Positions 13,348-58,789 of a DNA stretch of 64,000 nucleotides are shown in pieces (the first letter of the stretch is position 1; every line of letters starts with the position of its first letter). Both the position numbers and the translations under genes were made by a program. The DNA is from Minisyncoccia bacterium (GTDB lineage Bacteria > Patescibacteriota > Minisyncoccia > Phycocordibacterales > SBAW01). The notes under the pieces were generated by a model. The model made no database searches and had not been told where the DNA came from. It saw only the letters and a list, made by a program, of their open reading frames with translations. The DNA lies in assembly GCA_049997855.1 (NCBI GenBank), contig JBEKSG010000005.1, positions 1,111 to 65,110 on the forward strand, in the 5' to 3' direction.

Positions 13348-13418
13348 CGGGCCGTAGTATACCGGCAGTACACATGCATGGGGTGCATGTAGACCGGGTC
13401 CAATTCCCGGCGGCCCGA
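13348..13418 (+). tRNA. tRNA-Pro (anticodon GGG), CCA not encoded; T-loop reads TCCAATT (C at position 55).
   Basis: Hand-folded cloverleaf: acceptor CGGGCCG/CGGCCCG (7 bp), U8, D-arm GTAT/accggca/GTAC, anticodon arm CATGC-ATGGGGT-GCATG (U33, G37), T-arm CCGGG-TCCAATT-CCCGG, discriminator A. Confidence 0.5.
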
Positions 13419-13552
13419 CAAGATAGACATCTATTATCTAAATACGTTGCAACATAAGCGTTTTATAGTCAAATCAGAACCCCCTCTTTTTTGTCAAGCT
13501 CCGCGCTTGACCTATTGACCAAAGTTCGATATCGTTATGTTGTCTTAGGTGT

Positions 13553-13575
13553 AGCCCCTCGGGGGCTTTTTTGTT
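13553..13575 (+). terminator. Rho-independent terminator (AGCCCC-tcg-GGGGCT + TTTTTTGTT).
   Basis: Read directly. It lies about 135 nt downstream of tRNA-Pro and about 55 nt upstream of CDS 13629. Confidence 0.6.
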
Positions 13576-13628
13576 GCCCAAGACTCATATACGGGCTTAC
13601 TCATAATCACTTGCAGCTTATTTAAATC

Positions 13629-14090
13629 ATGAATCTTACTGCCGGTCTCGTCATTGCGCTTAGCGCCGTGCTTGGAGGTACAACTCCAGCATCGGCCTCC
13701 GCTGTTGTACCGCCGGTTCCTCAACCACAAACGGTTGAGCAATATGTGCAAACCTATTTTGCCGACGAGCCTATCATGGTAGCGGTGGCCGAGTGCGAGT
13801 CGCACTTTCGTCAATATGATGTCGATGGGTCTGTCTATCGCGGCAAAGTCAACAACCTCGACGTGGGCGTGATGCAAATTAACGAGCACTATCACAGCGC
13901 CACGGCCGCAAAGCTCGGGCTCGACCTCTATACCATCCAGGGCAACACTGCCTACGCACAATATTTGTACCAAAAAGAGGGCATCACGCCGTGGAGCTCC
14001 TCGGAGGCGTGCTGGAGCAAAAGCACCGCCGCTAAAGAGCTCGATGCGCAGGCTATGGCTTCAAGCACGCTCGCGTTGGCTAATAAATAA
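13629..14090 (+). CDS. Secreted lysozyme-like / lytic transglycosylase-like small protein.
   Basis: Signal peptide MNLTAGLVIALSAVLGGTTPASASA. AECESHFRQ...DVGVMQIN resembles the SLT/lysozyme-like catalytic Glu-Ser and GxMQ motifs. Confidence 0.55.
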   Translation: MNLTAGLVIALSAVLGGTTPASASAVVPPVPQPQTVEQYVQTYFADEPIMVAVAECESHFRQYDVDGSVYRGKVNNLDVGVMQINEHYHSATAAKLGLDLYTIQGNTAYAQYLYQKEGITPWSSSEACWSKSTAAKELDAQAMASSTLALANK

Positions 14091-14100
14091 TTATCTTTTG

Positions 14101-14484
14101 TTAATGCCAGTCGGTGGCCCATGAGCCTGCGCCGTAGGCTGATATGTAGAGTAAGCCTCCGACAATAGCCATGTCTTGGAGAAAGAGCGCCTGGGATGAG
14201 TTGCTGGCGAGCCCAGTGTAAAAAAACGCCACCGCAATAACATACAAAGCGAGCACAAGCGCCGCTTGGCTGGTTTTAAAGCCCACCACAATGGCGATAC
14301 CGCACAACACCTCAATGAGTATGGCCACAATTGCCAGCGTGATTGGCACGAGCGCGCCTGTGTTGGCTATAGAGGTGGCAGTAGTGGGAAAGTTGATGGT
14401 AGCCTCAACGCCGCTCCAGACAAAAAATCCGCCCATGAGTATCCTCCCAATAAGGGGAGCAAAAATATCCGTATAACTGTGCAT
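14101..14484 (-). CDS. DoxX family membrane protein.
   Basis: RILMGGFFVWSG motif and four TM helices typical of DoxX. Confidence 0.8.
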   Translation of the reverse strand: MHSYTDIFAPLIGRILMGGFFVWSGVEATINFPTTATSIANTGALVPITLAIVAILIEVLCGIAIVVGFKTSQAALVLALYVIAVAFFYTGLASNSSQALFLQDMAIVGGLLYISAYGAGSWATDWH

Positions 14485-14542
14485 AAATTTATTATAACAG
14501 GGAAGTGAGTCCCCTAGCGAAAAGACATTCTTTAACTAACCT

Positions 14543-14704
14543 TCAATTTAGGAATCTAAAGTAGAAGGCAATAAACACCAGAACGATGCCGATGTTTACG
14601 ATGAGCCGTTCCCAGAATTGATCCCTGAAGAACAGCAGATCGACGCCGACGACAATGGCTACCATGGCTACAACATACACCGTGAGCAGTACCGGTCTTA
14701 TCAT
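14543..14704 (-). CDS. Unlisted small membrane protein (53 aa; MIRPVLLTVYVVAMVAIVVGVDLLFFRDQFWERLIVNIGIVLVFIAFYFRFLN), possibly co-transcribed upstream of DoxX.
   Basis: Hand translation of the reverse complement. Two hydrophobic helices. Below the ORF-track length cutoff. Confidence 0.35.
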   Translation of the reverse strand: MIRPVLLTVYVVAMVAIVVGVDLLFFRDQFWERLIVNIGIVLVFIAFYFRFLN

Positions 14705-14824
14705 TGCTTATAAATAGTACCACATGTCTGTGTTGGAACCTTTATCTTATATATACGTCGCAAAAGATATATTGTGCGACCTTTATATTCTCACAACTCT
14801 GAGTACGCGTGCCATAATGATGGT

Positions 14825-15502
14825 ATGAAGTATCGTACGCAACTCGATCCCCTGCTCTCCTCCGAGGAGCGGCGGTTGCTTGTAAAACTTTCGACACCCA
14901 ACAAGATACAAGACTTTTTAGATTCCTTCCCCGTTAATTTTTCGCCGATAGGGGAGCCCGTGCAATCACCGCGGCACGTATTAAAAAATAAAAGGGCGCA
15001 TTGCATCGAGGCGGCTATTGTAGCGGCGGCTTCCCTCGCCTATCACGGCAGAGAGGCATTACTGTTAGATTTACAGGCAAGTAATGACGATGAGGATCAT
15101 GTCGTCGCACTTTTTAAAGAACATAGTTTGTGGGGCGCGATAAGCAAAACAAATCATCCGCAGCTGCGTTGGCGCGATCCCATATACCAAAGCGTACACG
15201 AGCTCGCAATGTCATACTTTCACGAATATTTTTTGTGGGACACAACGCACAACAACAAAAAGGTACCTGCTGCACGCCAGGGCAAAAAAACCTTGCGCGC
15301 ATACTCCAAGCCATTTAACTTGATGCGTTATAAACCTGCGCGTTGGTGGGCAGCAGATAATCTAGACTGGCTTGCCGAAGAGCTCGATAGTTCGCGCCAC
15401 TTCCCTCTTGTCTCAAAATCGACTATCAAAAAATTGCGCCCGGCCAACCAGGTAGAAATAAAAGCTGCGGTACTTACCGAATACAAAAACCCGCTCATGT
15501 AG
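14825..15502 (+). CDS. Transglutaminase-like (papain-fold) domain protein.
   Basis: Cys-His-Asp arrangement: RAHCIEAAIVAAASLAYHG ... DEDHVVALF ... W...D. Start taken at the first ATG (MKYRTQLD...); the ORF-track start is GTG at 14774. Confidence 0.55.
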   Translation: MKYRTQLDPLLSSEERRLLVKLSTPNKIQDFLDSFPVNFSPIGEPVQSPRHVLKNKRAHCIEAAIVAAASLAYHGREALLLDLQASNDDEDHVVALFKEHSLWGAISKTNHPQLRWRDPIYQSVHELAMSYFHEYFLWDTTHNNKKVPAARQGKKTLRAYSKPFNLMRYKPARWWAADNLDWLAEELDSSRHFPLVSKSTIKKLRPANQVEIKAAVLTEYKNPLM

Positions 15503-15514
15503 AGCGGGTTTTGC
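15483..15514. terminator. Bidirectional terminator between convergent genes (AAAACCCGCTC-atgta-GAGCGGGTTTT).
   Basis: 11-bp stem with A-tract and T-tract on either side; it overlaps the stop codon at 15500-15502. Confidence 0.6.
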
Positions 15515-15529
15515 TGCAAGCACAAAAGG

Positions 15530-15757
15530 TTACATTGATGCTGAGCATTCTTTGCATCCTTTTTTGTGGGTTACAAGAAGCCAAACCGCCGAGATGCCTA
15601 CAAGGACATCCACAGTCCACAAGACTTGCGGCCAGGATCCAAGCAACATACCAAGCACGTCCCAATTACTACCGACAAAACCGCCAATGCCGATGAGACC
15701 CCAGTCAAGACCGCCGATAGCAAGCAGGATAAACGCTATTATGTGGAGTACTTTCAT
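15530..15757 (-). CDS. DUF378-family small membrane protein.
   Basis: MKVLHIIAFILLAIGGLDWGLIGIGGF matches the DUF378 GGLNWGL signature. Start taken at the internal Met. Confidence 0.7.
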   Translation of the reverse strand: MKVLHIIAFILLAIGGLDWGLIGIGGFVGSNWDVLGMLLGSWPQVLWTVDVLVGISAVWLLVTHKKGCKECSASM

Positions 15758-15873
15758 ATTGTTTTCGTACAAGAAAAATGATGGTAGGCGGCTCGACCTA
15801 TCCGCGCTGCTATAAGTATGAGCTGTCTACTGTTTTTTTAACAGTCCTCTTGTGGGGATAGTTTTTATTGCGC

Positions 15874-17247
15874 TTAGACACCGGGCAAATATGATAGCGG
15901 GTTGAGGTAAGCAGAAAGGTCGGCTACCGGCATGGTGTAAGTTTTGCCCGGGCATCCGGAGCTTGCAAATGAAGCGATTTCCGAACCTGCCGAAGCATAT
16001 ACGCCAAAGTGTAGGTGCGGCCCGGTAGCGTAGCCGGTGGTGTCGGAGTAGCCTATTATCTCTCCGGTCGTGATCATGTCGCCTGTAGCTACGGTAAAGC
16101 TTGCAAGATGGCCATAGAGGGTTGAGAGGCCATTGTCATGCTTGATAAATATCCATTTGCCAAACGAGGCGCCCGGACACGTAAGGTCGGTATTGCCCGT
16201 GCCGAGCACCACTCCCTCACGCGCAGCCAATACCGGCGTGCCGGGGCTTGCGGCAAGGTCTACGCCGCTGTGGCCATGGCCACTATATATCTGCGGGTTT
16301 GCGGTAGCGAATGGCGTATTGCCAAAATATTGCGTAATGCACGATATCCACCCCTCCCCAGCGGGAGCAGGGCATGCTCCTCCATATACGTGCGCCAGCG
16401 GCCACTGCAAAGCCCCCTGCCCCGTTGCAGGTAAGCTCGATGCGCTGAAGGAGAGATTGAGTTTGCTTTGAAAGTTTAACAGATCGCTCTCAAATCCGGC
16501 CTCCTCTTTTTGCTTTTCGGTAATCTGCGCCTGATAGAGGCTCTCTTGATTTTTTGTTTGAGTAAGAAGTTTTGACTGGCTGTCTTTAGAGATAGCAAGG
16601 CCTTGCTGTTGCTCGGCAAGCGTTTGTTGATAGGCAGCTAACTGCGCTTTTTGCGCCTCTGCCATAGTCTCGTTGGTTTTAAGTGTATTTTTAAGCGAGT
16701 TCAAGTCATCTATTTTATTTTCGAGATCGGTGCGGACCGAAGCTAGTGTGGTCTCCTCATCAAAAAACGACGATATGGTACCGCCGCTGAGCAATACTGC
16801 AAGCAACGATTCGTTATCTAACATATCCAATTGACGGAGTGAGTCGGCTATTTCGGTCTGCATTTCGCTTATTTGCGAAGTGGTAGTCGATATGGTGGTA
16901 TTTATTTGACTTATTTGCGAGTCTTTTTGTTTGATTTGTATTTGTGCTAAGGTAATGCTCTTTTGAAGTTTTTGAATATTAAGATTGAGCGCTGCTATCG
17001 CGTTTTGGAGCGTCAGTTTTTGGGCGCTGGTACTTGTCAGCTGGCTTTGGAGCTTTGTAATATCGTTTTGGAGCTGTTTAATCTGCGCGTTGGTTTGGTC
17101 AATTTGCGCTTGGAGCGTCGAGGTCGAGGTCGAGGTTATTGTTTGGGCTTCTGAGTGCGGTGCGTGCAAAAAAAAGAGTACAGCTGAGGCACCTACTATC
17201 ATAGACAGAAAAAAAACACCTGCACGCATCGCAAATAGGCGTCGCAT
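15874..17247 (-). CDS. M23-family peptidoglycan endopeptidase with N-terminal signal/TM and long coiled coil.
   Basis: Long coiled-coil N-region. C-terminal M23 LytM motifs HSGVDLAA...GxTG...GPHLHFGVY (HxxxD, HxH). Confidence 0.85.
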   Translation of the reverse strand: MRRLFAMRAGVFFLSMIVGASAVLFFLHAPHSEAQTITSTSTSTLQAQIDQTNAQIKQLQNDITKLQSQLTSTSAQKLTLQNAIAALNLNIQKLQKSITLAQIQIKQKDSQISQINTTISTTTSQISEMQTEIADSLRQLDMLDNESLLAVLLSGGTISSFFDEETTLASVRTDLENKIDDLNSLKNTLKTNETMAEAQKAQLAAYQQTLAEQQQGLAISKDSQSKLLTQTKNQESLYQAQITEKQKEEAGFESDLLNFQSKLNLSFSASSLPATGQGALQWPLAHVYGGACPAPAGEGWISCITQYFGNTPFATANPQIYSGHGHSGVDLAASPGTPVLAAREGVVLGTGNTDLTCPGASFGKWIFIKHDNGLSTLYGHLASFTVATGDMITTGEIIGYSDTTGYATGPHLHFGVYASAGSEIASFASSGCPGKTYTMPVADLSAYLNPLSYLPGV

Positions 17248-17256
17248 CTGCCTATT

Positions 17257-18612
17257 TTAAAGCATTTGGATTGCTTTCTCAATACGCAGAAGCGTTTTTT
17301 CTTTTCCTATAAGGCCGGCGAGTACAAAAGGGTCCGGAGATTTTTCTTTACCCGATAGTGCTACGCGCATGGGCCACAATACCCCCGCCCTGCCAGCTCC
17401 CGTGGCATAGGGAAATACGACTTCTTTTACCGCTTCTGCGGTAAAGTGCTCCTTCGGTATCTTGGCGAGCAAGCCTATAACCGTTTGCAGGTTACTTTTT
17501 ACCACTGAAGCTTCAGTTTTTGCACCTTGGAGGAGAAGCAACGGGTCTAATGTTATGTCCGGTTCCATAAAAGAAAACTCACCGGTGCGGATATACTCAG
17601 CAGCCTCGCCGAGCGTGTGTGCGCGCACTTGAAGCTCTGCTGCAATGTCCGCAAGATACTCAGGTGTCTGTTCATTATGTTCATGCATAAACTCTCGGAG
17701 GAGTACCTCGAACTCGAGCACAGAACGTTTTTTAAGATATTCATGATTAAACCACTTTAATTTTTCTATATTAAACACAGCGCCGCTTTTATGCACACGC
17801 TCGATGGTAAAGAGTGCCACCAGCTCGGCAAGCGTAAAAATTTCCTGCTCTTTGCCGCCTGCCTGCGCAGGCAGGCCTGGGTTCCATCCCAAGAGAGCTA
17901 AATAATTAACAAGCGCTTCTGGCACATATCCTAGAGAGCGATACTCGTTTGCTGATACAGCACCGTGACGTTTGGAAAGTTTAGTTTTGTCGGGCGCCAA
18001 GATAAGCGGGATGTGCGCATATACGGGACGAGTAAAACCGAGCGCCTCAAGCATTAAAATTTGTCGCGGCGTGTTGGAGAGATGCTCTTCTCCCCTAATG
18101 ACATGGGTGACACCCATTTCGTGGTCGTCGATAACGACTGCCAGGTGGTAGAGCGGTTCGTCCATGCCGCGCGCGATGACAAAATCGCCGAGCTCAGTGG
18201 TATCAAAGGCAACCTCGCCATGTACAAGATCCTGAAAGATGATTGTTTTGTTTGGATTTTTAAAACGAACGACTTTTTTGCCGGAGTTGTTGTTTGCTTC
18301 CTCTGCCTCGTAAGCAAAGCCTTGCTCTACAAGAGTTTTAAAATATTTTTTGTAGATTTCTATACGCTCCGATTGGCGCGCCACAGGCGGCATAACATAC
18401 GGAATACTAGCCCAGTTGATAGCGTTTACAATATCATCCTCGAACTCTTTTTTACTGCGCTCTTTGTCGGTATCTTCAAAACGCAGATACATGGTGCCGC
18501 CATAGTGTGCCGCAAAAAGATAGTTAAACAATGCAGTGCGCACGCCGCCGATGTGCAAAAGGCCGGTGGGGCTTGGAGGAAACCGGGTAATGACCGTGTT
18601 GCTATTGTTCAT
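17257..18612 (-). CDS. gltX: Glutamate--tRNA ligase.
   Basis: RFPPSPTGLLHIGGVRTALFNYLFA (HIGH) and KLSKRHG (KMSKS). Confidence 0.95.
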   Translation of the reverse strand: MNNSNTVITRFPPSPTGLLHIGGVRTALFNYLFAAHYGGTMYLRFEDTDKERSKKEFEDDIVNAINWASIPYVMPPVARQSERIEIYKKYFKTLVEQGFAYEAEEANNNSGKKVVRFKNPNKTIIFQDLVHGEVAFDTTELGDFVIARGMDEPLYHLAVVIDDHEMGVTHVIRGEEHLSNTPRQILMLEALGFTRPVYAHIPLILAPDKTKLSKRHGAVSANEYRSLGYVPEALVNYLALLGWNPGLPAQAGGKEQEIFTLAELVALFTIERVHKSGAVFNIEKLKWFNHEYLKKRSVLEFEVLLREFMHEHNEQTPEYLADIAAELQVRAHTLGEAAEYIRTGEFSFMEPDITLDPLLLLQGAKTEASVVKSNLQTVIGLLAKIPKEHFTAEAVKEVVFPYATGAGRAGVLWPMRVALSGKEKSPDPFVLAGLIGKEKTLLRIEKAIQML

Positions 18613-19732
18613 GGGAAACGGCTATATCGAGCAATACGTTGGCTATTGTTTTTGCGGCGTCGGGGCGGGCAAAACTTTTGGCCGCGTTTTGCATTGTGCG
18701 CAATATATCGGGATGACTTACGATACGCTCGATTTCGGACACTAATACGCCCGACGTGAGATTGCGTTGCTCTATAACCACGCCGCCGCCGTGGCGCGCG
18801 TAGGTAAAGGCGTTAATCGTCTGGTCGTGCGATATAGGCTCGGGAATCGGGACAAGTATTGAAGGGATGCCCCATGTGGCCGCCTCAAATATATTGCCCG
18901 CTCCTGCGCGCGAGATGATGAGTGTGGCGACACCGGCGGCCATGCGGGTCGCGACGTCGTTAAAATATTCAAACGGTTTGTAGCGCTCCGCAATGAGCGA
19001 GTCGGTAAGCACCACGCGCGCGCGGCCCTCTACTTCTTTAAAATTGGCACGGCCTGTTTGATGTATAAGCTGGTATTTTTCTATCAGCTGCGGCAATGCA
19101 TCAAGAATGGCATCGTTGATTGTTTGAGAACCCTGGCTCCCGCCGGTAACTACTATGATAGGAAGATTGTGACGGAGTTTGAGAAACTCGTATGCGCCTT
19201 CGCGCGCGGGTATAAGCACCTCTTTGCGTACGGGATAGCCGGTGTGCGCGACCTTGTTTTTGGGGAAGAACTCGGCGCCTTCGGCAAACGACACGGCTAT
19301 TTTTTGCGCAAACTTCGCCGCCCATTTGTTAACACGGCCCGGGTCGACATCGCATTGGAGTATGACCACCGGGATGCGGAAAAACCGCGCCGCAAGCAGG
19401 GTTGGAAACGCCATATACCCGCCGGTCGAAAACACGACATCCGGGTAGAGGAAAAAAATACGCCATACGGAGCGGAATATCCCCCACCCTGTTTTAAAGT
19501 AATCAAAAAAGTTAAGGATCGAAACATAGTTGCGAATTTTACCCGCCGCGACCGGCACAAAGGTAATGTTGTTTGCGAGCAGGAGCTCGCGATCGTACGG
19601 GTCTGACGCGGCATAAAAAAGCTGCGGCTCCAGGAGCTTGCGCTCGCGCACCTCCTCGTTGAGGGCCTCCGCCACCGCAATGATGGGATAAAAATGCCCT
19701 CCTGTTTTCCCGCCGGTAAAAAGTATCTTCAT
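18602..19732 (-). CDS. murG: UDP-GlcNAc:lipid I GlcNAc transferase MurG.
   Basis: MKILFTGGKTGGHFYPIIAVAEAL is the MurG N-terminus; GT-B fold. It overlaps the gltX start by 11 nt. Confidence 0.9.
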   Translation of the reverse strand: MKILFTGGKTGGHFYPIIAVAEALNEEVRERKLLEPQLFYAASDPYDRELLLANNITFVPVAAGKIRNYVSILNFFDYFKTGWGIFRSVWRIFFLYPDVVFSTGGYMAFPTLLAARFFRIPVVILQCDVDPGRVNKWAAKFAQKIAVSFAEGAEFFPKNKVAHTGYPVRKEVLIPAREGAYEFLKLRHNLPIIVVTGGSQGSQTINDAILDALPQLIEKYQLIHQTGRANFKEVEGRARVVLTDSLIAERYKPFEYFNDVATRMAAGVATLIISRAGAGNIFEAATWGIPSILVPIPEPISHDQTINAFTYARHGGGVVIEQRNLTSGVLVSEIERIVSHPDILRTMQNAAKSFARPDAAKTIANVLLDIAVSHEQ

Positions 19733-19751
19733 ACAAGTAATGGTATCAATC

Positions 19752-20855
19752 TCATGTCTGTCTCATCCGTCGTGAGACGCTTAATATCATGCCAACCTCA
19801 CAAAGTGAAATTGCAAGCGCCGTGCCACCATGAGAAACAAAGATGAGAGGAACGCCGATGAGGGGCACTAGCCCCAACGTCGAGGCGATATTGAAAAACG
19901 ATTGCCCGATAATGAGTATAACAAGACCCGTGGCTATGAGTCCACCGAACGGATCGGCTGCCCGGGCCGCGATGCGCAGGCCAAGGAGGCCAAACGCCAG
20001 ATACAAAAGGACAAGCGCCGAGGCTCCTATAAAGCCAAATTCTTCGCCGGCAACCGCAAAAATAGAGTCGCCGCTCGGTTCCGGCAGGTACGAAAACTTT
20101 TCGATGCTTTGACCAAAACCGCGGCCGGTGAAACCTCCGGAGCCAACCGCGATGAGAGACTGCTGTATTTGCCAGCCGGCGCCCTGTGGATCACTGGTTT
20201 GGTTTAAAAAAGTTTCAATGCGTTGTGCAATATAGGGGCGTTCGTACGCGGCAGCACCAACCGCAAGCACTCCGATGAGAAAAAGTAATAGCAAATGCGA
20301 TACACGCCCGCCTGCAGCAAAAAGTATTGCAACCGAAGAAATGCCGATGATAATGACGCCGGCCGTGTCGGGTTGTATGAGCAAAACAAGAGCCGCACTC
20401 CCAGAAACTATGGCAAGAGGTCCTATACCGCCAAGAAGCGTCCTTGTTTTTTTGAGTCGTGTTGAGTATATGGCGGCAAGGAACATCACAGTGGCGAATT
20501 TGAGCACCTCCTCGGGCTGGAAAGAAACCGGCCCAACCACTATCCAACGCGCGGCGCCTTTAAGCGAAAGTCCGATATGCGGCACAAAAGTAAGAAGCGA
20601 TAAAAAAAAGGCGAGCACAAAAAAATAGATCGTGTACGGACGCCACACGCGATAGTCGATGCGCGCAAAAAAAATGAGTCCTATGCCTCCTATTACCAGG
20701 CCGAGGAGTAGTTGGCTCACGGCGGCCGAAGTAAACGAGGCACCGCCATTTTCGGCCAGGAGCGAGAGCGAGGCGGAGGTAAAGATAAGAAGACCAGACA
20801 CGAGGAGTGCACATAATACGAGGAGAAACGGAGCGTCGATTGATTTTTTACTCAT
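19752..20855 (-). CDS. ftsW: SEDS-family peptidoglycan polymerase FtsW/RodA.
   Basis: 10-TM profile and conserved SEDS blocks (PEPSGDSIFAVAGEEFGFIG, GLVPLIGVPLIFVSHGG). Confidence 0.9.
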   Translation of the reverse strand: MSKKSIDAPFLLVLCALLVSGLLIFTSASLSLLAENGGASFTSAAVSQLLLGLVIGGIGLIFFARIDYRVWRPYTIYFFVLAFFLSLLTFVPHIGLSLKGAARWIVVGPVSFQPEEVLKFATVMFLAAIYSTRLKKTRTLLGGIGPLAIVSGSAALVLLIQPDTAGVIIIGISSVAILFAAGGRVSHLLLLFLIGVLAVGAAAYERPYIAQRIETFLNQTSDPQGAGWQIQQSLIAVGSGGFTGRGFGQSIEKFSYLPEPSGDSIFAVAGEEFGFIGASALVLLYLAFGLLGLRIAARAADPFGGLIATGLVILIIGQSFFNIASTLGLVPLIGVPLIFVSHGGTALAISLCEVGMILSVSRRMRQT

Positions 20856-20868
20856 GGCAGACCCTCTA

Positions 20869-39218: not shown

Positions 39219-39233
39219 GTTGCGGTTTTTTTA
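39202..39233. terminator. Bidirectional terminator between convergent CDS 38919..39218 and alaS (AACCGCA-12nt-TGCGGTT + TTTTTTT).
   Basis: Read directly. The hairpin overlaps both stop codons. Confidence 0.6.
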
Positions 39234-41165
39234 TTCCAACACCGCCCTGATGCGTCTTATACCTTGGGCGACGGCTTCTTCTTTTACTATTTTAAATACG
39301 CCACTCTTCCCAAGCTTGCCGGTATGCTCTGCGTGCGGACCGCCGCAAAACTCTATCGAAAATGGGTTGGAAAGCGGCCCAACCGAGTACACCGATACTT
39401 TGTCGGGATATTTTGCGCCAAACTCATGTTCCGCACCAAGCTTTTCGGCATCTTCTTTTGCCATTTCAGTGCAAGTCATAGGGACATTCTCGGCAATTTT
39501 TTCGTTGACGATGCGTTCTACCTCCCTTTTTTGCTCGTCGGTCATTTTTTGCGGCCAGCTAAAGTCGATACGCAAGCGTTCCTCGGTGATATTGCTGCCG
39601 CGCTGATGCACCTCGGGGCCGAGTACTATTTGCAATGCTTTAAGCAAAAGGTGATGTGCCGTGTGGAGGCGCGTGGTCTTCTCGCTCGTGTCGGCTAAGC
39701 CGCCCTTAAACTTTTGCTCGCTCCCCGCGCGCGAACGGTTTTGATGCTCTTTGAGCAGTTCTTTAAACCCTTCGATGTCGATTTGTTTGATGCCTTTAGC
39801 GCCTGCCTCTTCGATGATCAGCTCAAGCGGAAATCCGTACGTGGTAAACAGCTGGAACGCGTCTTCGGCTGACACATGCCCGCTTCCCACAAACCGCTCA
39901 AGCTCGGCGCTACCGCGCGCAAGCGCGCGCCTAAATTGCTCTTCCTCTTCGGCAATCGCTTTTTCAATAGCCACAATTTTTTCGGTCAGTTCGGGATAGG
40001 CATCTTTATACATGTCGGCAATCGGCTTCACGATAGTTGCAAAACCCGCCTCGGTGATGCCTAAGCGGTCGGCGTGACGCACCGAGCGGCGGATGAGCCG
40101 GCGCACAAAGTAGCCTCGGTCGCTTTTGGCGGGCAATACGCCATCGGCGATCAAAAATACGGCGGCCTTCATGTGGTCGGCGATGATTCTAAATGCGCGT
40201 GTTTCCGAGGCGACGCCTCTATCAAGAGGCGTCGCCTCCAGGTGATATTTTTTGCCTGAAGCCTTTTCGAGATACTCAACGATGGGTTTATGACCGACGG
40301 CAATGATGTCGGGCAAGTTGTGGGCTGCCATAGCGATGCGCTCGAGGCCGCCGCCAAAGTCGACGTTTTGCTTAGGCAATGGCACAAACGAACCATCGAG
40401 GTGTTTCTGATATTGCATAAACACCGAGTTGCCTATCTCCAAAAAACGGCCACAATCGCAGTTGGGGTGGCAACGCTCACCAAATTTTTTGTCGTGCGCT
40501 GCTTGCCCGTCTTTTTTAAATTGTCCAAAGTCATAAAAAATTTCGGAGTCGGGGCCGCCCGGCTCGCCGGGCGGCATCTTGTGGGGCATGCCGGCGCGAC
40601 TCCACCAGTTTTTGCTGGAGTCGTAGTAAAAAATGCGTTCGCCTTCTTGCATCCCTTTTGTATATCCGTCGGCTTCGGAACCGATTGATGCTATCTTTGC
40701 CTCGATACCTTTCCCGTTAAAAAGTTTTTGCCAAATCCCCGCCGATTCGGTGTCTCGCGGAAGATTGAGCGCGGCATCGCCGATAAAAACCGAGACAAAC
40801 AGCTTGTGAGGATCGAGGCCGATGCTGTCGGTCAAAAACTCAAAGACCCACGGCAGTTGCTCTTTTTTAAAATAATCACCCAACGACCAATTGCCGAGCA
40901 TTTCAAAAAAAGTGGTGTGGCGATTGTCACCCACCTCCTCGATGTCGTCGCTCCTAAAAGCTTTTTGCGAATCGGCAATGCGCGTACCTTCGGGGTGCGT
41001 TTTGCCGAGTAAATACGGCACCATGGGTTGCATGCCCGAACCGGTAAAAAGCGTGGTCGGGTCGTTTTGCGGCACGAGAGGAGCCGAGGGGACAATGGCG
41101 TGTCCGCGCGCCTTAAAAAACTCAAGATAAGCCTGCCTGATTTCGCCGAGCGTCATGGCATCCAT
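39231..41165 (-). CDS. alaS: Alanine--tRNA ligase, short form (catalytic + tRNA-recognition + editing domains; no C-terminal C-Ala/oligomerisation domain).
   Basis: N-terminus MDAMTLGEIRQAYLEFFKARGH; class II motifs; editing-domain HxxxH...CxxxH (HTAHHLL ... FCGGPH). The protein ends about 25 aa after the editing-site Cys. Start set at the internal ATG (ORF-relative). Confidence 0.9.
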   Translation of the reverse strand: MDAMTLGEIRQAYLEFFKARGHAIVPSAPLVPQNDPTTLFTGSGMQPMVPYLLGKTHPEGTRIADSQKAFRSDDIEEVGDNRHTTFFEMLGNWSLGDYFKKEQLPWVFEFLTDSIGLDPHKLFVSVFIGDAALNLPRDTESAGIWQKLFNGKGIEAKIASIGSEADGYTKGMQEGERIFYYDSSKNWWSRAGMPHKMPPGEPGGPDSEIFYDFGQFKKDGQAAHDKKFGERCHPNCDCGRFLEIGNSVFMQYQKHLDGSFVPLPKQNVDFGGGLERIAMAAHNLPDIIAVGHKPIVEYLEKASGKKYHLEATPLDRGVASETRAFRIIADHMKAAVFLIADGVLPAKSDRGYFVRRLIRRSVRHADRLGITEAGFATIVKPIADMYKDAYPELTEKIVAIEKAIAEEEEQFRRALARGSAELERFVGSGHVSAEDAFQLFTTYGFPLELIIEEAGAKGIKQIDIEGFKELLKEHQNRSRAGSEQKFKGGLADTSEKTTRLHTAHHLLLKALQIVLGPEVHQRGSNITEERLRIDFSWPQKMTDEQKREVERIVNEKIAENVPMTCTEMAKEDAEKLGAEHEFGAKYPDKVSVYSVGPLSNPFSIEFCGGPHAEHTGKLGKSGVFKIVKEEAVAQGIRRIRAVLE

Positions 41166-41234
41166 AGTACCAAGATTATAAAATTTTGGTACTATGAACA
41201 CTCACGATTACCTTTATATAAATAGACAAAGATA

Positions 41235-48684: not shown

Positions 48685-48687
48685 AGC

Positions 48688-49737: not shown

Positions 49738-49755
49738 GAAGAAAAGAGAAAATAC

Positions 49756-52274: not shown

Positions 52275-52323
52275 ATATCGTGTGTCTTAATATATCACAC
52301 TCTACTGCTAGGGTCAAACACTG

Positions 52324-54663
52324 TCAATTCTCCACAACTACAAAGTTGATAATGCGCCCGGGCACGTAAATTGCCTTGGTCTCCTTCCCTTTCTTAAGCC
52401 AAGCGGCCACTTGGGGGTTGGCGCGAGCCGCGGCCAAAGCCTCCTCATCGGGAACATTTGTGGCGAGTTCTACCCTGCCGCGTACTTTGCCGTTTATCTG
52501 CACGGCAATGGTGGCCATAGAGACGGAGGTTTTTTGAGGGTCAAATTCGGGCCAAGAATCTATGGTGAACTCTAATTGTTCAGCCAGCTCGCTGGCAATA
52601 TGAGGAGCAAACGGTGCCAACAGCTGTAAAAAGGAGTTCCATTGTTTGCTGCCTACATGTTCTTCTTTTTCAATAAAATTAAGAAGTGTCATTAATTTAC
52701 TTACGGCAGTATTTAGCTTCAAATTTTCAATATCATCAGCAATTTTTTTAATACTTTGATTCAATAGTAAATCTATATCTTGATTAGGCACATCGGAAGA
52801 TTCTTTAATTTTTTGACTCAATTTCCACACACGCTCCAAAAAGCGGCGCACACCCATGATGTTGTTGGTATTCCAGGGCTTCATCGCCTCAAGCGGACCC
52901 ATAAACATCTCGTACAATCGCACCGAATCGGCGCCAAAACGCTCGGCCATGTCGTCAGGATTGATAACATTATTCCAGCGCTTGCTCATTTTACGGCTGT
53001 CCTCCGCAAGAATAATCCCCTGATGACGCAAAGTAAGGAACGGCTCGCCAAAAGTAAGGTACCCCATATCGCGCAGCGCCTTGGTATAAAAACGCGCGTA
53101 TAAAAGATGAAGCACCGTATGCTCGGCGCCGCCCACGTACAAATCAACTGGCAACCACTTTTGCAGAGCCTCTTTAGAAGCAAACTCTTTAATGTTGTGT
53201 GGATCGGCAAAGCGGAAAAAGTACCACGATGAGCACGCAAAGGTATCCATTGTGTCTATCTCGGGCTTCCAGCCTTTGCCAAAAATTGTTTCGGTGCGCA
53301 TAAATAATTCTTTAGACGTACCGAGCGGCGAAGTGCCTTTGGGTAAATACTCCACATCGGTGGGTAAAAGCCATGGCAAATGTTCATCTGGCACGGCGTG
53401 CGGCTTCCCCTCCGGATCATACACAATCGGTATAGGCGCGCCCCAATAGCGCTGGCGAGAAATGAGCCAATCCCGCAGACGATATTTTTTGACCCATGTA
53501 CCGCCAACCTCGTTTACTATTTTTTTTGCATCAGCCAGTTCTGCCTCAATAATCGGCAGATGAAATTTTTTGGCAAATTTATTATCGCGCTCGTCGTGCG
53601 CGGGCACGGCCATGATTGCTCCTGTGCCGTAGCCCTCCAAGACATAGTCGGCAATATATATCGGAATTTCTTCTTTATTGGCGGGATTGATTGCTTTGAT
53701 TCCTTTAAGTTCAACGCCCGTCTTTTCCTTCCCTTCGGCATTGCGTTCGATATCGCTCTTTACTTTGGTCACTTCGATATATCGAAGCACTTCCTCCTTA
53801 TTTTCGAGTTGTTCCAGCAAGTCTCCCAATAAAGGATGCTCGGGAGCGAGCACGAGATAAGTAGCGCCAAAGAGCGTATCCGGCCGCGTGGTGAAAACCT
53901 TTATTGAGTTAAAGGTTCGACCTTGGGAGCCTTGAGCTAAGGTCGAACCTTGGAGTATTGCAAAATCTATCTCGGCTCCTTCGCTCCTGCCAATCCAGTT
54001 GCGCTGGTTTATTTTTGTCGACTCGGGCCAGTCAACTTGGCTCAGGCCATCAACGAGTTCGTCGGCATAGTCGGTGATTTTATAAAACCATTGCTCAAGC
54101 TCCTTTTTTTCAACTTTGGCGCCGCTGCGCTCCGCCGTGCCGTCGGGCAACACTTGCTCGTTGGCAAGCACCGTTTGGTCGACCGGATCCCAATTAACCA
54201 ATGCTTTCTTTTTATATACCAAGCCTCTTTCAAAAAATTTGGTAAATAGCCACTGCGTCCAGCGATAGTACTCGGGGCTATGCGTGCCAAACTCTCGGGT
54301 CCAATCATATGAAAGGCCGAGATTTTTTATCTGCTTTCTAAATGTGTTTATCGACTCGTCGGTTGTTTTTTGCGGCGGCGTGCCGGTTTTTATCGCGTAA
54401 TTTTCGGCAGGCAAGCCGAAAGCGTCCCACCCCATCGGATGAAGCACATTAAACCCTTTTGCCCTTTTATAACGGCTGTAAACATCGGTCGCGGTGTAGC
54501 CCTCGACATGCCCCACATGCAGGCCCACGCCCGAAGGATACGGGAACATATCGAGCACATAAAACTTTTGCTTGTCCGAACCTTCGGCTGTTTTGTATGT
54601 GCCGGAGTCTTCCCACTTTTTTTGCCACTTTTTTTCAATTTTTTTGTGGTCGTACTTAGTCAT
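52324..54663 (-). CDS. leuS: Leucine--tRNA ligase (compact form).
   Basis: PYPSGVGLHVGHVEGY (HIGH), KMSKRWNN (KMSKS), CP1 editing domain. Confidence 0.97.
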   Translation of the reverse strand: MTKYDHKKIEKKWQKKWEDSGTYKTAEGSDKQKFYVLDMFPYPSGVGLHVGHVEGYTATDVYSRYKRAKGFNVLHPMGWDAFGLPAENYAIKTGTPPQKTTDESINTFRKQIKNLGLSYDWTREFGTHSPEYYRWTQWLFTKFFERGLVYKKKALVNWDPVDQTVLANEQVLPDGTAERSGAKVEKKELEQWFYKITDYADELVDGLSQVDWPESTKINQRNWIGRSEGAEIDFAILQGSTLAQGSQGRTFNSIKVFTTRPDTLFGATYLVLAPEHPLLGDLLEQLENKEEVLRYIEVTKVKSDIERNAEGKEKTGVELKGIKAINPANKEEIPIYIADYVLEGYGTGAIMAVPAHDERDNKFAKKFHLPIIEAELADAKKIVNEVGGTWVKKYRLRDWLISRQRYWGAPIPIVYDPEGKPHAVPDEHLPWLLPTDVEYLPKGTSPLGTSKELFMRTETIFGKGWKPEIDTMDTFACSSWYFFRFADPHNIKEFASKEALQKWLPVDLYVGGAEHTVLHLLYARFYTKALRDMGYLTFGEPFLTLRHQGIILAEDSRKMSKRWNNVINPDDMAERFGADSVRLYEMFMGPLEAMKPWNTNNIMGVRRFLERVWKLSQKIKESSDVPNQDIDLLLNQSIKKIADDIENLKLNTAVSKLMTLLNFIEKEEHVGSKQWNSFLQLLAPFAPHIASELAEQLEFTIDSWPEFDPQKTSVSMATIAVQINGKVRGRVELATNVPDEEALAAARANPQVAAWLKKGKETKAIYVPGRIINFVVVEN

Positions 54664-54673
54664 GCACTCAATA

Positions 54674-55645
54674 CTAGTTGACCGTATTTTTGATTATTGG
54701 ATAGAGCGCCGGGTCGATTGTGCGGATAAAGCACACTTGGCCCGCTCCATGCTGCCAGTTGTTGCCTATCGTGTTAACGCTATCAGCGCCGTTTATGGCG
54801 GGCATCGGCATATTTGCGTAGCCGCTCGTCGGCTGAGGTTCGCCGTTGCTGTCGCGGTTAAAAACGGCGCACAGCTCAAAAGTATGCGCTCCGTTTACGA
54901 TATAGTGGTATGCCTTTCCGCTCTGCGAGTCCACGGGCACGCTGTAATTGGAAATAGAGTCATTAAGTTGGTTAAGTGTCGAAGGCAGCACCCCTTTGTG
55001 CTGCCAGTAATACACAATCTGCGATTGAATGTTTTCCAAGTCGGTAACTTTTTGCGCATCAAAAAGCGCAGCCCTCGCTTGCATCGGCGTACCGACGATA
55101 AAAAATCCCGCAACAATGGTGAGCACCACCAAGAGGCCGGTACCGTAGCCCACGCGGTGTGCGCGCTCGGGAAATTCCTCCCAGTAGCCGTACAAATCAG
55201 CGACAAAGTGCATACATATCCCAACCGCTACCAAGAACACCAGCGCCACTTTTAAAAGGAAAGGCGCGGTGAGTGTCTCGCCGCTGAGGAAGGTAGTGAG
55301 CAACACAATGAGGTCGATAGCGGCCGTGAGAATGGCGATAAAAAGCGTCAGAACAAGCGACCAGCGGCGCACCCACACCTCGCGGCGGCTCGCGTCGCGC
55401 GCAATGTCGCGGTGGATAAACCACATCAGCGCCAAAAAGAGTGGAAACATCACGATGAGCGACGCCATCTCGTAGCTGATGCCGCTTTGATATGGGTCGG
55501 TGTAATAGGTTTGGAGCGGATTTGGAAAAGCGTAATTGAGATAATCAAATACAAGCTCCAAAAAAGCAAAAACGCTTACATACAGGGATATTATCGCGCC
55601 CGCCCACAAGAAAAAATCCTTCGGCGTTGTTCTTGGTTTGTCCAT
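54674..55645 (-). CDS. Hypothetical polytopic membrane protein with C-terminal extracytoplasmic domain (DUF5671-like architecture).
   Basis: Five or more TM helices followed by a soluble Cys-containing C-domain. Family assignment is from memory and is low confidence. Confidence 0.5.
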   Translation of the reverse strand: MDKPRTTPKDFFLWAGAIISLYVSVFAFLELVFDYLNYAFPNPLQTYYTDPYQSGISYEMASLIVMFPLFLALMWFIHRDIARDASRREVWVRRWSLVLTLFIAILTAAIDLIVLLTTFLSGETLTAPFLLKVALVFLVAVGICMHFVADLYGYWEEFPERAHRVGYGTGLLVVLTIVAGFFIVGTPMQARAALFDAQKVTDLENIQSQIVYYWQHKGVLPSTLNQLNDSISNYSVPVDSQSGKAYHYIVNGAHTFELCAVFNRDSNGEPQPTSGYANMPMPAINGADSVNTIGNNWQHGAGQVCFIRTIDPALYPIIKNTVN

Positions 55646-55662
55646 ATAAAAATAATTAGCGA

Positions 55663-56763
55663 TTAACTATGCAGGAATTCTATCACATCGCCGTCTTTGA
55701 CTATATACTCCTTCCCTTCTGTTTTTAGTATGCCTTGCTCGCGCGCCTTGGCGTATGAGCCCGCTTCAAGCAGTTTTTGCCAGTTGATGACTTCGGCGCG
55801 GATAAACTTGTTGTAAAAGTCGGTGTGTATCGCCGCGCCCGCCTCGGGCGCGGTAGAGCCCAGGGGAATAGTCCACGCGCGGCTCTCGTCGGCGCCGGTG
55901 GTAAAAAAACTCATGAGCCCCAACAATTGATACGCACCAACAATAAGTCCGTTGACGCCATCATCAAACACGCCGTACTCTTGCCTAAAACTTGCTTTGT
56001 CGTCGCCGTGCAAATCGCGCAACTCGTTTTCGATATTGGCGTCAATCGGCACATAGGTTGCACCTATCGAGTTAAAATAGTCGACCAAGCGCTCGTAGCG
56101 GCCGTCGTTGAGTTCATCGAGATTGTGGCCGCCGGCTTCTTTGTTGAGCACATAGAGCATCGGCTTCATGCTGAGCAAGTGGAGCCCTTTGAGCGTATCG
56201 CGCTCCTCTTTGGTATACACGGCGCCTGAGGCGGGCTTGCCCTCCTCAAGTGCACTTTTTGCTTTTGCAATTGCTGTTTGCTCGGCCAGTGCTTCTTTTT
56301 TACCGGCGCGCACATCGCGCTCGAGAGAGCCGAGCCTCCTTTCGACCGTTTCGGTATCGGCGAGTATCAATTCAAGATTAACTACTTCGACATCGCGTAG
56401 AGGATCAATCACCGCATCCACATGCGTAATATTTGGATTATCAAAGAGCCGCACGACATGCGCGATGGCATCCACCTCGCGGATGTGCGAGAGAAACTGA
56501 TTGCCCAACCCCTCGCCCTCGCTCGCGCCCTTAACCAAGCCGGCGATATCGACAAACTCAATCGCAGCCGGCACTATTTTGGCGGAGCTTGAAAATGCGG
56601 CAAGCTTGTCGAGGCGCAGGTCGGGCACGGCAACGACTCCCACCGACGGGTCGATGGTCGCAAACGGATAGTTGGCAATCAGCACGCTCTTTTTGGTAAT
56701 AGCCTGAAAGAGCGTCGACTTGCCGACATTGGGCAACCCCACGATGCCTACCGATAATCCCAT
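55663..56763 (-). CDS. ychF: Ribosome-binding ATPase YchF (Obg family).
   Basis: GIVGLPNVGKSTLF (G1), NKEAGGH..., TGS domain at the C-terminus. Confidence 0.95.
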   Translation of the reverse strand: MGLSVGIVGLPNVGKSTLFQAITKKSVLIANYPFATIDPSVGVVAVPDLRLDKLAAFSSSAKIVPAAIEFVDIAGLVKGASEGEGLGNQFLSHIREVDAIAHVVRLFDNPNITHVDAVIDPLRDVEVVNLELILADTETVERRLGSLERDVRAGKKEALAEQTAIAKAKSALEEGKPASGAVYTKEERDTLKGLHLLSMKPMLYVLNKEAGGHNLDELNDGRYERLVDYFNSIGATYVPIDANIENELRDLHGDDKASFRQEYGVFDDGVNGLIVGAYQLLGLMSFFTTGADESRAWTIPLGSTAPEAGAAIHTDFYNKFIRAEVINWQKLLEAGSYAKAREQGILKTEGKEYIVKDGDVIEFLHS

Positions 56764-56764
56764 A

Positions 56765-57631
56765 CTATTTTTTTGCTTCCAGTTCGCCGGGAGTTTTAGG
56801 CATGACGTTTAGAGCCATTGCCGAAGTCCCACCAGGGAGTGTCGAGAGCGCCGATTTGGGTTCGGGCGAAGGAGCCGAGGTGTTTGGCATTACGGTAAGC
56901 GCGCCGTTCAGAACCTGGACAATTTCAGATATGGGCTGGAGTGCCGGCACCTTTGGCAAAAACGGTGTGTCGGTTACCTTGGGCGCGGGCGAAGTGGGGG
57001 TTGTAGGCGATGGCGCGGAGATATCCGGAATAATTTTTATCTCTTTCGGCGGAATAAAATCTTTTGGCAAAGAAACGGGCTCGGGCACCGGGGGCGGTGG
57101 CGGGAGAGGTGCCGGTTTTTTCCTTGGCACCATTTTTCTGTCGCGGCGAATGACCACTATCGCCTCCCAACACAACACAAATCCTATAAGCCACGCGGCG
57201 TAGAACGTGCCGAGATTGGCCCACGTAGTGACCGGCGCCAAAATGTGTACCAAAAAAAGCGCGTACCATGTGCCTCCGATGACTCCTTCGACAATGCTAA
57301 GCTTGCTGGTACGACGCACAGACGTAAGTGCCACCACCAGGAGTATGAGCACCCATTTAAAGAGAAAGGCAGGAGCAAAAACAACGGCGCTCTCCCCCGC
57401 CGTGAGATGCAGCACTGCTATGCCGAGCCCCGAGAGGACGATAAGCCAGAGCGCGGCGGCCATAACGCGCTTGATGGCAAGGGCGTATTGCGTTTCCTTC
57501 TCGTCCACGATGCCGTCGCGCATGGAGATAAGGTAGGCAGCAAGCATAATAGTTTCGGCACCGACGCCGAGTGTTACGCCGAGCTGCTGAGCGCAATAAA
57601 AAATCAGATTTAAAAAATCCGCGCTGAACAT
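56765..57631 (-). CDS. Hypothetical membrane protein with Pro-rich C-terminal tail.
   Basis: Six TM helices, then PAPLPPPPPVPEPVSLP... low-complexity tail. Confidence 0.5.
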   Translation of the reverse strand: MFSADFLNLIFYCAQQLGVTLGVGAETIMLAAYLISMRDGIVDEKETQYALAIKRVMAAALWLIVLSGLGIAVLHLTAGESAVVFAPAFLFKWVLILLVVALTSVRRTSKLSIVEGVIGGTWYALFLVHILAPVTTWANLGTFYAAWLIGFVLCWEAIVVIRRDRKMVPRKKPAPLPPPPPVPEPVSLPKDFIPPKEIKIIPDISAPSPTTPTSPAPKVTDTPFLPKVPALQPISEIVQVLNGALTVMPNTSAPSPEPKSALSTLPGGTSAMALNVMPKTPGELEAKK

Positions 57632-57735
57632 ACAAAAATTGTATCACGGGTTTTTTCTGTGGCGTCGAGTACACTCTCGACATCCGACGTACCGTCGGGT
57701 ACACAAAATTACAGTCGCTTTGCTCCTTAATTTTG

Positions 57736-57806
57736 TGGACCTACGGGGAGTCGGACCCCGACCTCGTCCATGCCATGGACGCGTTCTACCGCTGAACTAT
57801 AGGCCC
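57736..57806 (-). tRNA. tRNA-Ala (anticodon GGC), CCA not encoded; T-loop TCCGACT (C55).
   Basis: Hand fold of the reverse complement: GGGCCTA/TAGGTCC acceptor (one G-U), D-arm GTTC/AGCGGTA/GAAC, anticodon arm CGTCC-ATGGCAT-GGACG, T-arm CGGGG-TCCGACT-CCCCG, discriminator A. Confidence 0.6.
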
Positions 57807-57815
57807 TCGAACACA

Positions 57816-58232
57816 TCATACATTACCGGGCATCCGCTTATCGCGCATGCTGCGTCTTTTTTCCCGCCCGCGTATCTGGCGCTCGTCGTAACCGAAGTGA
57901 TGCGCGACTTCATGCCAGACGGTGTCGCGGATAACTTGCCGCACGTCTTTGCCCTCTGCCAGTGCGTTTTCCTCAATCGGTTTTTGAAACAGTGTAATGG
58001 TGTCGGGCAACGTCCCTCCAACGCCGTAGTAGTCACCGCGTGCAGTTGCAGGGACGCCGTGATACAAACCGAGCAGTGTCTCGTTCCGGCCTAAGCCTTC
58101 TTGTTTCCGCAATGCCTGCGACGGCTCATCTTCAATCAAGAACGCAACATTGTGTATCATGGTGCGGAACTTCTCCGGTATAGCCTTGGGGAATTCCTCC
58201 CCGACTAATTGTTCAAATGCATCTCTGGTCAT
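57816..58232 (-). CDS. Minimal zincin-like metallopeptidase (HExxH; DUF1025/Zincin_1-like).
   Basis: TVWHEVAHHFGYDE motif. Start at the internal Met MTRDAFEQL. Confidence 0.55.
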   Translation of the reverse strand: MTRDAFEQLVGEEFPKAIPEKFRTMIHNVAFLIEDEPSQALRKQEGLGRNETLLGLYHGVPATARGDYYGVGGTLPDTITLFQKPIEENALAEGKDVRQVIRDTVWHEVAHHFGYDERQIRGREKRRSMRDKRMPGNV

Positions 58233-58561
58233 TGGACTAACTGTAACAGAAAACACACAAACCAACCTGATTGTGTCACATGCCGGGCGGAAAATGGAAA
58301 AAGAAAAATAACCCGACCGAAGCCGGGCCATTAATATCGGCCTTCCAACTGATCTTGCTCTTCGTGGTCGCGCGCGATTTGCGCATTCCCGTTTGGGTGT
58401 TGTCTGTGCCAGCGAACATCGCCGTCGACAAGTTCAAGCACCAAAGCAATCACTAGCGCGACTGCAGTTGCCCATAACGGTATGTGTATGATAAACATGC
58501 TGAACTCCCCCAAACAACATTGAGAACGAATCTGCAAGATATTATACCACTAATATGAAAA

Positions 58562-58584
58562 TAAAAAAGCCTGCTTGTGCAGGC
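58562..58584 (-). terminator. Rho-independent terminator after the tRNA pair (GCCTGC-acaa-GCAGGC + TTTTTTAT on the minus strand).
   Basis: Read directly on the plus strand as AAAAAAGCCTGCTTGTGCAGGC. Confidence 0.5.
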
Positions 58585-58616
58585 AGACGTCATGAGTAGT
58601 GAATGTCATAACGATG

Positions 58617-58687
58617 TGGACCCGGCGAGAATCGGACTCGCGCCTCTGCAATGCGAATGCAGCGTTTTACCACTTAACTACGGGCCC
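58617..58687 (-). tRNA. tRNA-Ala (anticodon CGC), CCA not encoded; T-loop TCCGATT (C55); 3-bp D-stem.
   Basis: Hand fold: acceptor GGGCCCG/CGGGTCC (one G-U), anticodon arm CTGCA-TTCGCAT-TGCAG, T-arm GCGAG-TCCGATT-CTCGC, discriminator A. Confidence 0.5.
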
Positions 58688-58720
58688 TAATATAAAAATT
58701 ATATTAGTCAAAATCTAAGT

Positions 58721-58789
58721 CGGGGTGCCGAGAATCGGACTCGAGTTTCACGCACCCGAAGCGTGTATAATACCACTATAAGACACCCC
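58721..58789 (-). tRNA. tRNA-Pro (anticodon CGG), short (69 nt), CCA not encoded; T-loop TCCGATT (C55). The acceptor helix extends into 10-11 bp of complementary flanks.
   Basis: Hand fold: acceptor GGGGTGT/GCACCCC, D-arm TATA/GTGGTAT/TATA, anticodon arm CACGC-TTCGGGT-GCGTG (G37). Flanks AAATCTAAGTC / GACTTAGATTT are complementary. Confidence 0.45.

Follow-up and report, generated by a model that had tools for sequence, protein, structure and literature searches.

A stretch of 64,000 nucleotides from an uncultured, ultra-small Minisyncoccia bacterium of the phylum Patescibacteriota (GenBank assembly GCA_049997855.1, contig JBEKSG010000005.1, positions 1,111 to 65,110; hereafter, at its full length, the window) raises the question of how firmly bacterial elongator tRNAs depend on the uridine at position 55 of the T-loop. 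This nucleotide is near-universal in other organisms, where it pairs with G18 and is the target of the pseudouridine synthase TruB (PMC7912444), a premise of the preliminary description of this DNA that holds. On the basis of hand folds, that description had assigned a cytidine (C55) to four of the six tRNA genes of the window and had left two options, namely that the stems should be drawn differently or that the lineage tolerates C55. Our analyses favour, with a probability of about 0.75, the reading that the four loci are genuine working elongator tRNA genes and exemplify a loosening of the 18-55 tertiary pair throughout the lineage. Position 55 would then be U or C where G18 is kept, or G where position 18 becomes A.

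Position 55 in the six tRNA genes of the window

tRNA genes were called with ARAGORN and with the Rfam covariance model RF00005, which has a family gathering score of 29 bits. ARAGORN returned six tRNAs in the window, identical to the six of the preliminary description; five of them were aligned by RF00005 at the gathering threshold, and the sixth, tRNA-Pro(GGG), only with the speed filters relaxed (E-value mode). All six RF00005 alignments run from end to end, with a posterior probability of '*' throughout the T-arm. Both methods place C at position 55 (U54-C55-C56) in the same four genes as the hand folds had done, namely tRNA-Pro(GGG), tRNA-Ala(GGC), tRNA-Ala(CGC) and tRNA-Pro(CGG). These genes score 44.1-66.7 bits, above the gathering score, which disposes of the concern that such loci might not score as tRNAs at all.

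The four C55 genes share a compact format of 71 nt, with a 7-nt D-loop containing G18G19, a 4-nt variable loop and no encoded CCA. tRNA-Pro(GGG) (13348..13418, + strand, 48.7 bits) has the D-loop ACCGGCA and the T-arm CCGGG-UCCAAUU-CCCGG, with C55 at window position 13400. The other three are encoded on the - strand: tRNA-Ala(GGC) (57736..57806, 59.9 bits), with the D-loop AGCGGUA and the T-arm CGGGG-UCCGACU-CCCCG (C55 at 57754), tRNA-Ala(CGC) (58617..58687, 66.7 bits), with the T-arm GCGAG-UCCGAUU-CUCGC (C55 at 58635), and tRNA-Pro(CGG) (58720..58790, 44.1 bits), with the T-arm UCGAG-UCCGAUU-CUCGG (C55 at 58738). The two remaining genes carry U55 in both alignments, in agreement with the canonical T-loops attributed to them earlier. 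They are tRNA-Val(CAC) (59353..59426, - strand, 68.7 bits; T-loop UUCGAAU), which serves as an internal comparator, and tRNA-Ala(UGC) (59479..59554, + strand, 66.7 bits; T-loop UUCAACC), the sole one of the six with an encoded CCA and the one adjoining the recombinase cassette considered below.

As read from the alignments, G18, G19, U54, C56, A58 and the G53-C61 pair are kept in all four C55 genes. Each of their T-stems consists of five Watson-Crick pairs, and therefore no shifted register puts a U at position 55. Redrawing the stems, the first of the two options, is excluded by the covariance-model alignments, which rule out an alternative T-stem register.

C55 and G55 across related contigs

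Metagenomes were scanned with a pattern comprising positions 1-47 of the compact tRNA-Ala(CGC), the T-arm being excluded as a guard against bias, and 120 contigs were returned; a viral contig collection scanned with the tRNA-Ala(CGC) pattern gave no match. ARAGORN identified 118 Ala(CGC) genes on the 120 contigs, 36 with C55 and 82 with U55, together with 193 other tRNAs that included 17 with C55 and four with G55. Once pooled with genome-derived loci and freed of identical sequences, the set comprised 328 distinct tRNAs (274 U55, 49 C55, 5 G55 and 0 A55). Removal of the Ala(CGC) family, which had served as bait, left 199 U55, 20 C55, 5 G55 and 0 A55, i.e. 11% non-U, and the C55 share of the tRNAs of this lineage can be put at about 11-15%.

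C55 occurs well beyond the bait family, in Ala(GGC), Ala(UGC), Pro(GGG), Pro(CGG), Val(CAC), Val(UAC), Arg(CCU), Arg(UCG) and Arg(UCU), and this spread of families across related contigs supports the second option of the preliminary description, a lineage that tolerates C55. Examples confirmed by RF00005 at 62-70 bits include Val(CAC) and Ala(UGC) in contig L149 and Val(UAC) and Arg(UCU) in L160. By size, C55 was found in 35 of 143 compact tRNAs and in 14 of 185 of ordinary size. At p=0.15, the approximate C55 rate of the lineage, the binomial probability of at least four C55 genes among six is ~0.006; such a share is high even by the standard of the lineage, among which the window stands at the extreme. 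Compared with organisms in which U55 is near-universal (PMC7912444), it lies far outside chance expectation.

The state of Ala(CGC) does not foretell that of the other tRNAs on the same contig, non-U55 being found in 12 of 79 on contigs with C55-Ala(CGC) versus 13 of 126 on contigs with U55-Ala(CGC) (p=0.38). A permissive state at the genome level was rejected on this ground, and tolerance of C55 looks like a property of the lineage more than of a few genomes. GC pressure was also rejected as a driver, given only a weak trend (median GC 45.7% versus 42.6%, p=0.027).

Within the Ala(CGC) family, C55 accounts for 28 of the 98 distinct compact orthologs, and position 55 is the most variable of the T-loop (28 C versus 69 U), never being a purine in that family. 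C55 was seen with at least eight different T-stems, all perfectly paired, and each of the six commonest stems is represented by U55 genes as well as C55 genes. Three pairs of sequences differ at position 55 alone, and, position 55 aside, a single substitution separates the Ala(CGC) gene of the window from a U55 gene. When parsimony was applied to a neighbour-joining tree from which position 55 had been left out, 21 changes were required for 28 C55 tips, compared with a mean of 24.4 after the states were shuffled. This would leave the U/C state nearly without phylogenetic signal and suggests repeated flips, a result that is indicative only, since a molecule of only 70 nt yields a weak tree.

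Relatives of the window carry compact Ala(GGC/CGC) and Pro(CGG/GGG) genes in comparable clusters, mostly with U55. Synteny was followed through the gene for YchF: the closest relatives (93-81% identity) end at ychF or carry an ATP synthase operon there, and only L085, a 577-kb JGI contig whose YchF is 87% identical, has kept the cluster, in the conserved order Ala(UGC)-Val(CAC)-Pro(CGG)-Ala(CGC). Its Pro(CGG) has U55, while its Ala(CGC) has retained C55 on a compensated T-stem (CCGGG/CCCGG, as against GCGAG/CUCGC in the window). In the window, a 15-nt T-arm core is identical in the adjacent Ala(CGC) and Pro(CGG) genes (58617-58790; CGAGUCCGAUUCUCG / CGAGTCCGATTCTCG). Because of this identity, and because the L085 counterparts have unlike T-arms, with C55 confined to Ala(CGC), we suggest that C55 may have passed between these neighbours by gene conversion. 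The place upstream of ychF that the compact 71-nt C55 gene takes in the window is occupied in L085 (8903-8976) and in the related contig L087 (6885-6958) by an ordinary 74-nt Ala(GGC) gene with U55, so that the type of Ala(GGC) gene at this place has apparently been swapped or rebuilt between close relatives.

The rare G55 tRNAs differ from the C55 ones in the D-loop. AG replaces G18G19 in all five G55 tRNAs of the distinct set and in none of the 323 others, and the GG doublet is present in 49 of 49 C55 tRNAs. RF00005 confirmed A18 together with G55 in three of the five: an Ala(GGC) of contig L035 (47.0 bits), whose anticodon arm and remaining T-arm are the same as those of the C55 Ala(GGC) of the window, and two Cys(GCA) genes, in L090 (55.8 bits) and L154 (55.4 bits). 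The covariation of A18 with G55 shows that the 18-55 contact is still under selection, and the elbows appear constrained and functioning, not drifting sequence.

Such tRNAs score lower and are liable to be overlooked in annotation. The default speed filters of Rfam missed both the Pro(GGG) of the window (48.7 bits) and the G55 Ala(GGC) of L035 (4780-4850, 47.0 bits), although both lie well above the gathering threshold with relaxed filters; routine annotation may under-count tRNAs in such genomes, and the tRNA counts from which the completeness of metagenome-assembled genomes (MAGs) is judged may come out too low. On L045, a Candidatus Staskawiczbacteria contig, ARAGORN called a 77-nt tRNA with a CUA anticodon (5083-5159), labelled 'Pyl', which may be of suppressor type.

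Genomic setting and rival explanations

The window is housekeeping chromosome. It encodes Glu-, Cys-, Leu- and Ala-tRNA synthetases, together with synthetases of the Asp/Asn/Lys and Trp/Tyr types, and further MurG, FtsW, MraY, GrpE-DnaK-DnaJ, RpoA, ribosomal proteins, DnaB, BipA, MnmA, YchF and a DUF5671 protein. The YchF matches MGC9602598.1, from a Minisyncoccia bacterium MAG, at 100% identity, and the nearest species-level genomes are those of Candidatus Adlerbacteria and other Paceibacteria/Parcubacteria. An open reading frame (ORF) with an RNase T-type DEDD 3'-5' exonuclease domain (12731-13324, + strand) ends 24 nt upstream of tRNA-Pro(GGG) and overlaps a longer unannotated ORF on the opposite strand.

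Next to tRNA-Ala(UGC) lies the ORF of a large serine recombinase (59507-61147, - strand) with Resolvase, Recombinase and Zn_ribbon_recom domains, flanked by a 133-bp inverted repeat (59549-59681 and 61161-61293) whose arms are 98.5% identical. The left arm begins at the CCA end of the tRNA, and the JGI contig that matches the window stops just beyond the right arm. The whole (59507-61293) looks like an invertible or mobile cassette. Import of the canonical T-arm of Ala(UGC) by this element was considered and rejected, since there is no partial tRNA copy and the repeat starts only at the CCA end. Past the cassette, GC content falls from ~50% to 36-43% (60000-64000) and the ORFs are without clear Pfam match; this region may be foreign DNA.

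Among the explanations that compete with working C55 tRNAs, an artefact, whether a wrong fold or register or an error of sequencing or assembly, can be practically dismissed. Nothing was found in its favour, two tRNA finders that work independently give the same answer at maximal posterior probability, and the same C55 change recurs in dozens of unrelated data sets. Over the tRNA cluster, moreover, the JGI metagenome contig and a Logan assembly match the window at 100% identity, and with three identical assemblies in all, assembly error is ruled out as the source of C55. It is also very improbable that the C55 genes are pseudogenes in decay, or tRNAs employed outside translation, as in cell-wall or lipid aminoacylation. 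Some cell-wall pathways use Ala-tRNA as a donor, the window holds murG, ftsW and mraY, and the Rfam scores of both Pro tRNAs are modest (44-49 bits); against this, proline is not a cell-wall donor, and two of the four C55 genes are Pro. Identity depends on G3:U70 for tRNA-Ala and on C1:G72 with A73 for bacterial tRNA-Pro, and all stems of the four genes pair perfectly, with G3:U70 in both Ala and C1:G72 plus A73 in both Pro genes. The same applies to the lineage set, in which C55 tRNAs have 0.00 stem mismatches versus 0.015 for U55, 32 of 33 C55 Ala tRNAs carry G3:U70, and 7 of 8 C55 Pro tRNAs carry C1:G72 with A73. The codons read by the four C55 anticodons are the most heavily used for their amino acids in 27 housekeeping genes of the window (GCG 32% and GCC 31% of Ala codons, CCG 41% and CCC 24% of Pro codons), and no second copy of these or any other anticodon was seen within the 64 kb. 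Genes for the CCA-adding enzyme are present in related loci. Orthologs at the same positions in relatives have U55. C55 also persists through compensatory stem changes, as in the Ala(CGC) of L085, which is not the behaviour of a pseudogene.

Two further rivals concern the enzymology of position 55. Editing is improbable, though several features of the data would suit it: a hypothetical cytidine deaminase would restore U55 for subsequent isomerization by TruB, making C and U equivalent in the gene. C is by far the commonest alternative to U (49 C, 5 G, 0 A) and comes without a compensating change at position 18, whereas G55 comes with one; U/C flips are very frequent and carry almost no phylogenetic signal; and TruB is widely retained in the phylum. 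In Methanopyrus kandleri, the deaminase CDAT8 restores U8 from a genomic C8, a parallel in that a genomic C stands at a universally conserved U position of many tRNAs in one lineage, as it does here in several. Editing is proven in M. kandleri, however, and affects most of its tRNAs, while Pfam scans of the ORFs of the window revealed no deaminase-like gene. C55, moreover, amounts to 15% of tRNAs instead of the ~40-50% expected at a neutral site in genomes of 43-50% GC, the natural C55 of tRNA-Gly in Lactiplantibacillus plantarum has been described with no editing invoked, and the A18:G55 variant shows the elbow adapting without it. If true, C55 editing would be a bacterial counterpart of the archaeal C8-to-U8 editing. 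Loss of TruB from this genome or clade, by which U55 would no longer be needed, is a more serious contender but still unlikely. No truB came to light in the 64 kb of the window when it was searched with 120 TruB sequences from Patescibacteria; in two further MAGs of the Minisyncoccia (L214 and L223) truB lies directly after dnaJ or one gene beyond, where the window has the gene of the Trp/Tyr-type tRNA synthetase instead, and all 13 distinct tRNAs lying beside truB genes have U55. A sampling of six truB neighbourhoods likewise yielded U55 tRNAs only, in numbers too small for significance. The synteny argument is weak, as the DnaK-coding genes of L214 and L223 are only 61% identical to that of the window, and 13 of 13 is not significant at a base rate of 11-15% (P about 0.1-0.2). 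Furthermore, a short TruB of about 220 aa lacking the PUA domain is very common in Patescibacteria (7792 matches at E<=1e-20), non-U55 tRNAs occur on diverse contigs irrespective of the Ala(CGC) state, and two of the six tRNAs of the window still carry the full UUCRA site of TruB.

With regard to truB itself, a query with an approximate E. coli TruB sequence found one gene, in L115, where it neighbours an Ala(CGC) with U55. Among named truB genes the nearest, MGC9603451.1, was discarded as a candidate: it comes not from the MAG of the window but from a sibling that has a separate dnaK operon. The short PUA-less truB adjoins a 106-aa tRNA_bind (PF01588) gene in L208 (9571-10663), L214 (10001-10959) and L223 (7988-8960), and in L208 and L220 the gene for the CCA-adding enzyme and tRNA genes lie close to the truB locus.

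The 18-55 contact and its parallels

In yeast tRNA-Phe, O4 of pseudouridine 55 accepts hydrogen bonds from G18. The base of pseudouridine is joined to the sugar through C5, so that its O4 sits where O2 is in uridine, and the O2 of cytidine occupies the same place. C55 would thus be expected to preserve the contact with G18 and the L-shape, at the price of the bond from N3-H to the phosphate backbone and of the water bridge through N1-H of pseudouridine. G55 would lack that carbonyl and offer N3 and an N2 amino group, which would suit adenine but not guanine, so that it would need A18. In the structure-derived consensus of the T-loop motif, position 2 is U or G, with C tolerated in some riboswitches, and T-loops with G at this position almost always receive an intercalating adenosine (bioRxiv 10.1101/2022.12.26.521914). 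The A18:G55 tRNAs of the relatives resemble the UGNRA T-loops of riboswitches, RNase P and rRNA in combining U54-G55-C56-R57-A58 with an A in the intercalating place of G18. Those RNAs, unlike them, are not tRNAs; the tRNA T-loop has been regarded as belonging to the class with U at position 2.

A tRNA with the U55C change is not pseudouridylated in vitro by either TruB or Pus4, and TruB binds it about fivefold more tightly (PMC13492117). C55 and G55 tRNAs cannot be substrates for TruB; since the U55C tRNA is not modified by it, the C55 tRNAs of these bacteria would have to lack pseudouridine 55, which would then not be universal in their cells.

Several points weigh against the reading of the four loci as working tRNA genes within a lineage-wide loosening of the 18-55 pair. 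Two of the five G55 cases, the Pro(CGG) genes of L134 (414-484) and L154 (2564-2635), were called by ARAGORN and get no RF00005 match; with the T-loops AGCAUAA and CGCACAU, AG in the D-loop, perfect stems and the Pro identity elements, they may represent a more radically rebuilt elbow or dead genes. The 64-kb window is the sole part of the genome covered, and canonical second copies with the same anticodons may lie elsewhere. The metagenome contigs come without a given taxonomy, and the proteins that they share with the window show moderate identity (48-63% for YchF); the sample is also biased to the neighbourhood of one gene, tRNA-Ala(CGC). The control from outside the Patescibacteria consists of five tRNAs, all U55, and the baseline for lineage specificity rests on the literature. 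The argument from isosteric pairs depends on the crystal structure of tRNA-Phe. Finally, the yeast suppressor tRNA SUP4oc tolerated no single change in G18-U55 (PMC4117946).

Both the occurrence of C55 on a lineage-wide scale and its companion, the A18:G55 covariation, appear to be undescribed, and a literature search on C55 or TruB in Patescibacteria found nothing specific. The nearest parallel among elongator tRNAs encoded with C55 in bacteria is the tRNA-Gly of L. plantarum, in which all isoacceptors but GCC have a natural C55, called 'unique' given the conservation of U55, and are charged by GlyRS equally as wild type and as C55U mutant (PMC10464925). That case concerns one amino-acid family in one Firmicutes group, whereas in Patescibacteria C55 extends over Ala, Pro, Val and Arg tRNAs on many contigs, with frequent U/C flips. 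Staphylococcal tRNA-Gly species for peptidoglycan synthesis lack the T-psi-C sequence, and are thus likewise bacterial tRNAs with a T-loop departing from it; they are, however, extra specialised isoacceptors kept off the ribosome, in contrast to the C55 genes, which are ordinary isoacceptors for major codons with U55 orthologs. The eroded tRNAs of mitochondria (PMC7609411) and of insect endosymbionts are comparable in the loss of conserved elbow nucleotides in small genomes under drift, but this lineage keeps the cloverleaf, G19-C56, U54-A58 and G53-C61, and only 18-55 varies, in a patterned way. In the tRNA-Pyl of Desulfitobacterium hafniense, a further bacterial instance of C55 in an altered elbow, C55 pairs with G13 (PMC7609411). 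That tRNA has no G18G19 and a rebuilt core, whereas the C55 tRNAs of the window have G18G19 and a normal core.

Candidate causes of the tolerance of C55 are drift in small symbiont genomes and the loss of partners that read the elbow. The L1 stalk of the ribosome touches the elbow of the E-site tRNA, and the C-Ala domain of alanyl-tRNA synthetase (AlaRS) binds the elbow of tRNA-Ala in other organisms. The AlaRS of the window (39231-41201, - strand, 656 aa) stops directly after the second additional domain (tRNA_SAD) and has no C-Ala domain, which may bear on C55 being most frequent in Ala tRNAs. Paceibacteria have been reported without the ribosomal protein uL1, part of the tRNA-releasing L1 stalk (PMC12641178). 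As causes of C55 tolerance, the loss of uL1 and the C-Ala-less AlaRS are leads only.

The lineage appears to accept either pyrimidine at position 55, or G in combination with A18, and thereby offers a natural experiment on the function of the 18-55 elbow contact and of pseudouridine 55. It leads to the prediction of cells that may still possess TruB and yet would have major tRNAs without pseudouridine 55, and C55 may connect to known oddities of translation in Paceibacteria, such as the loss of uL1 (PMC12641178).

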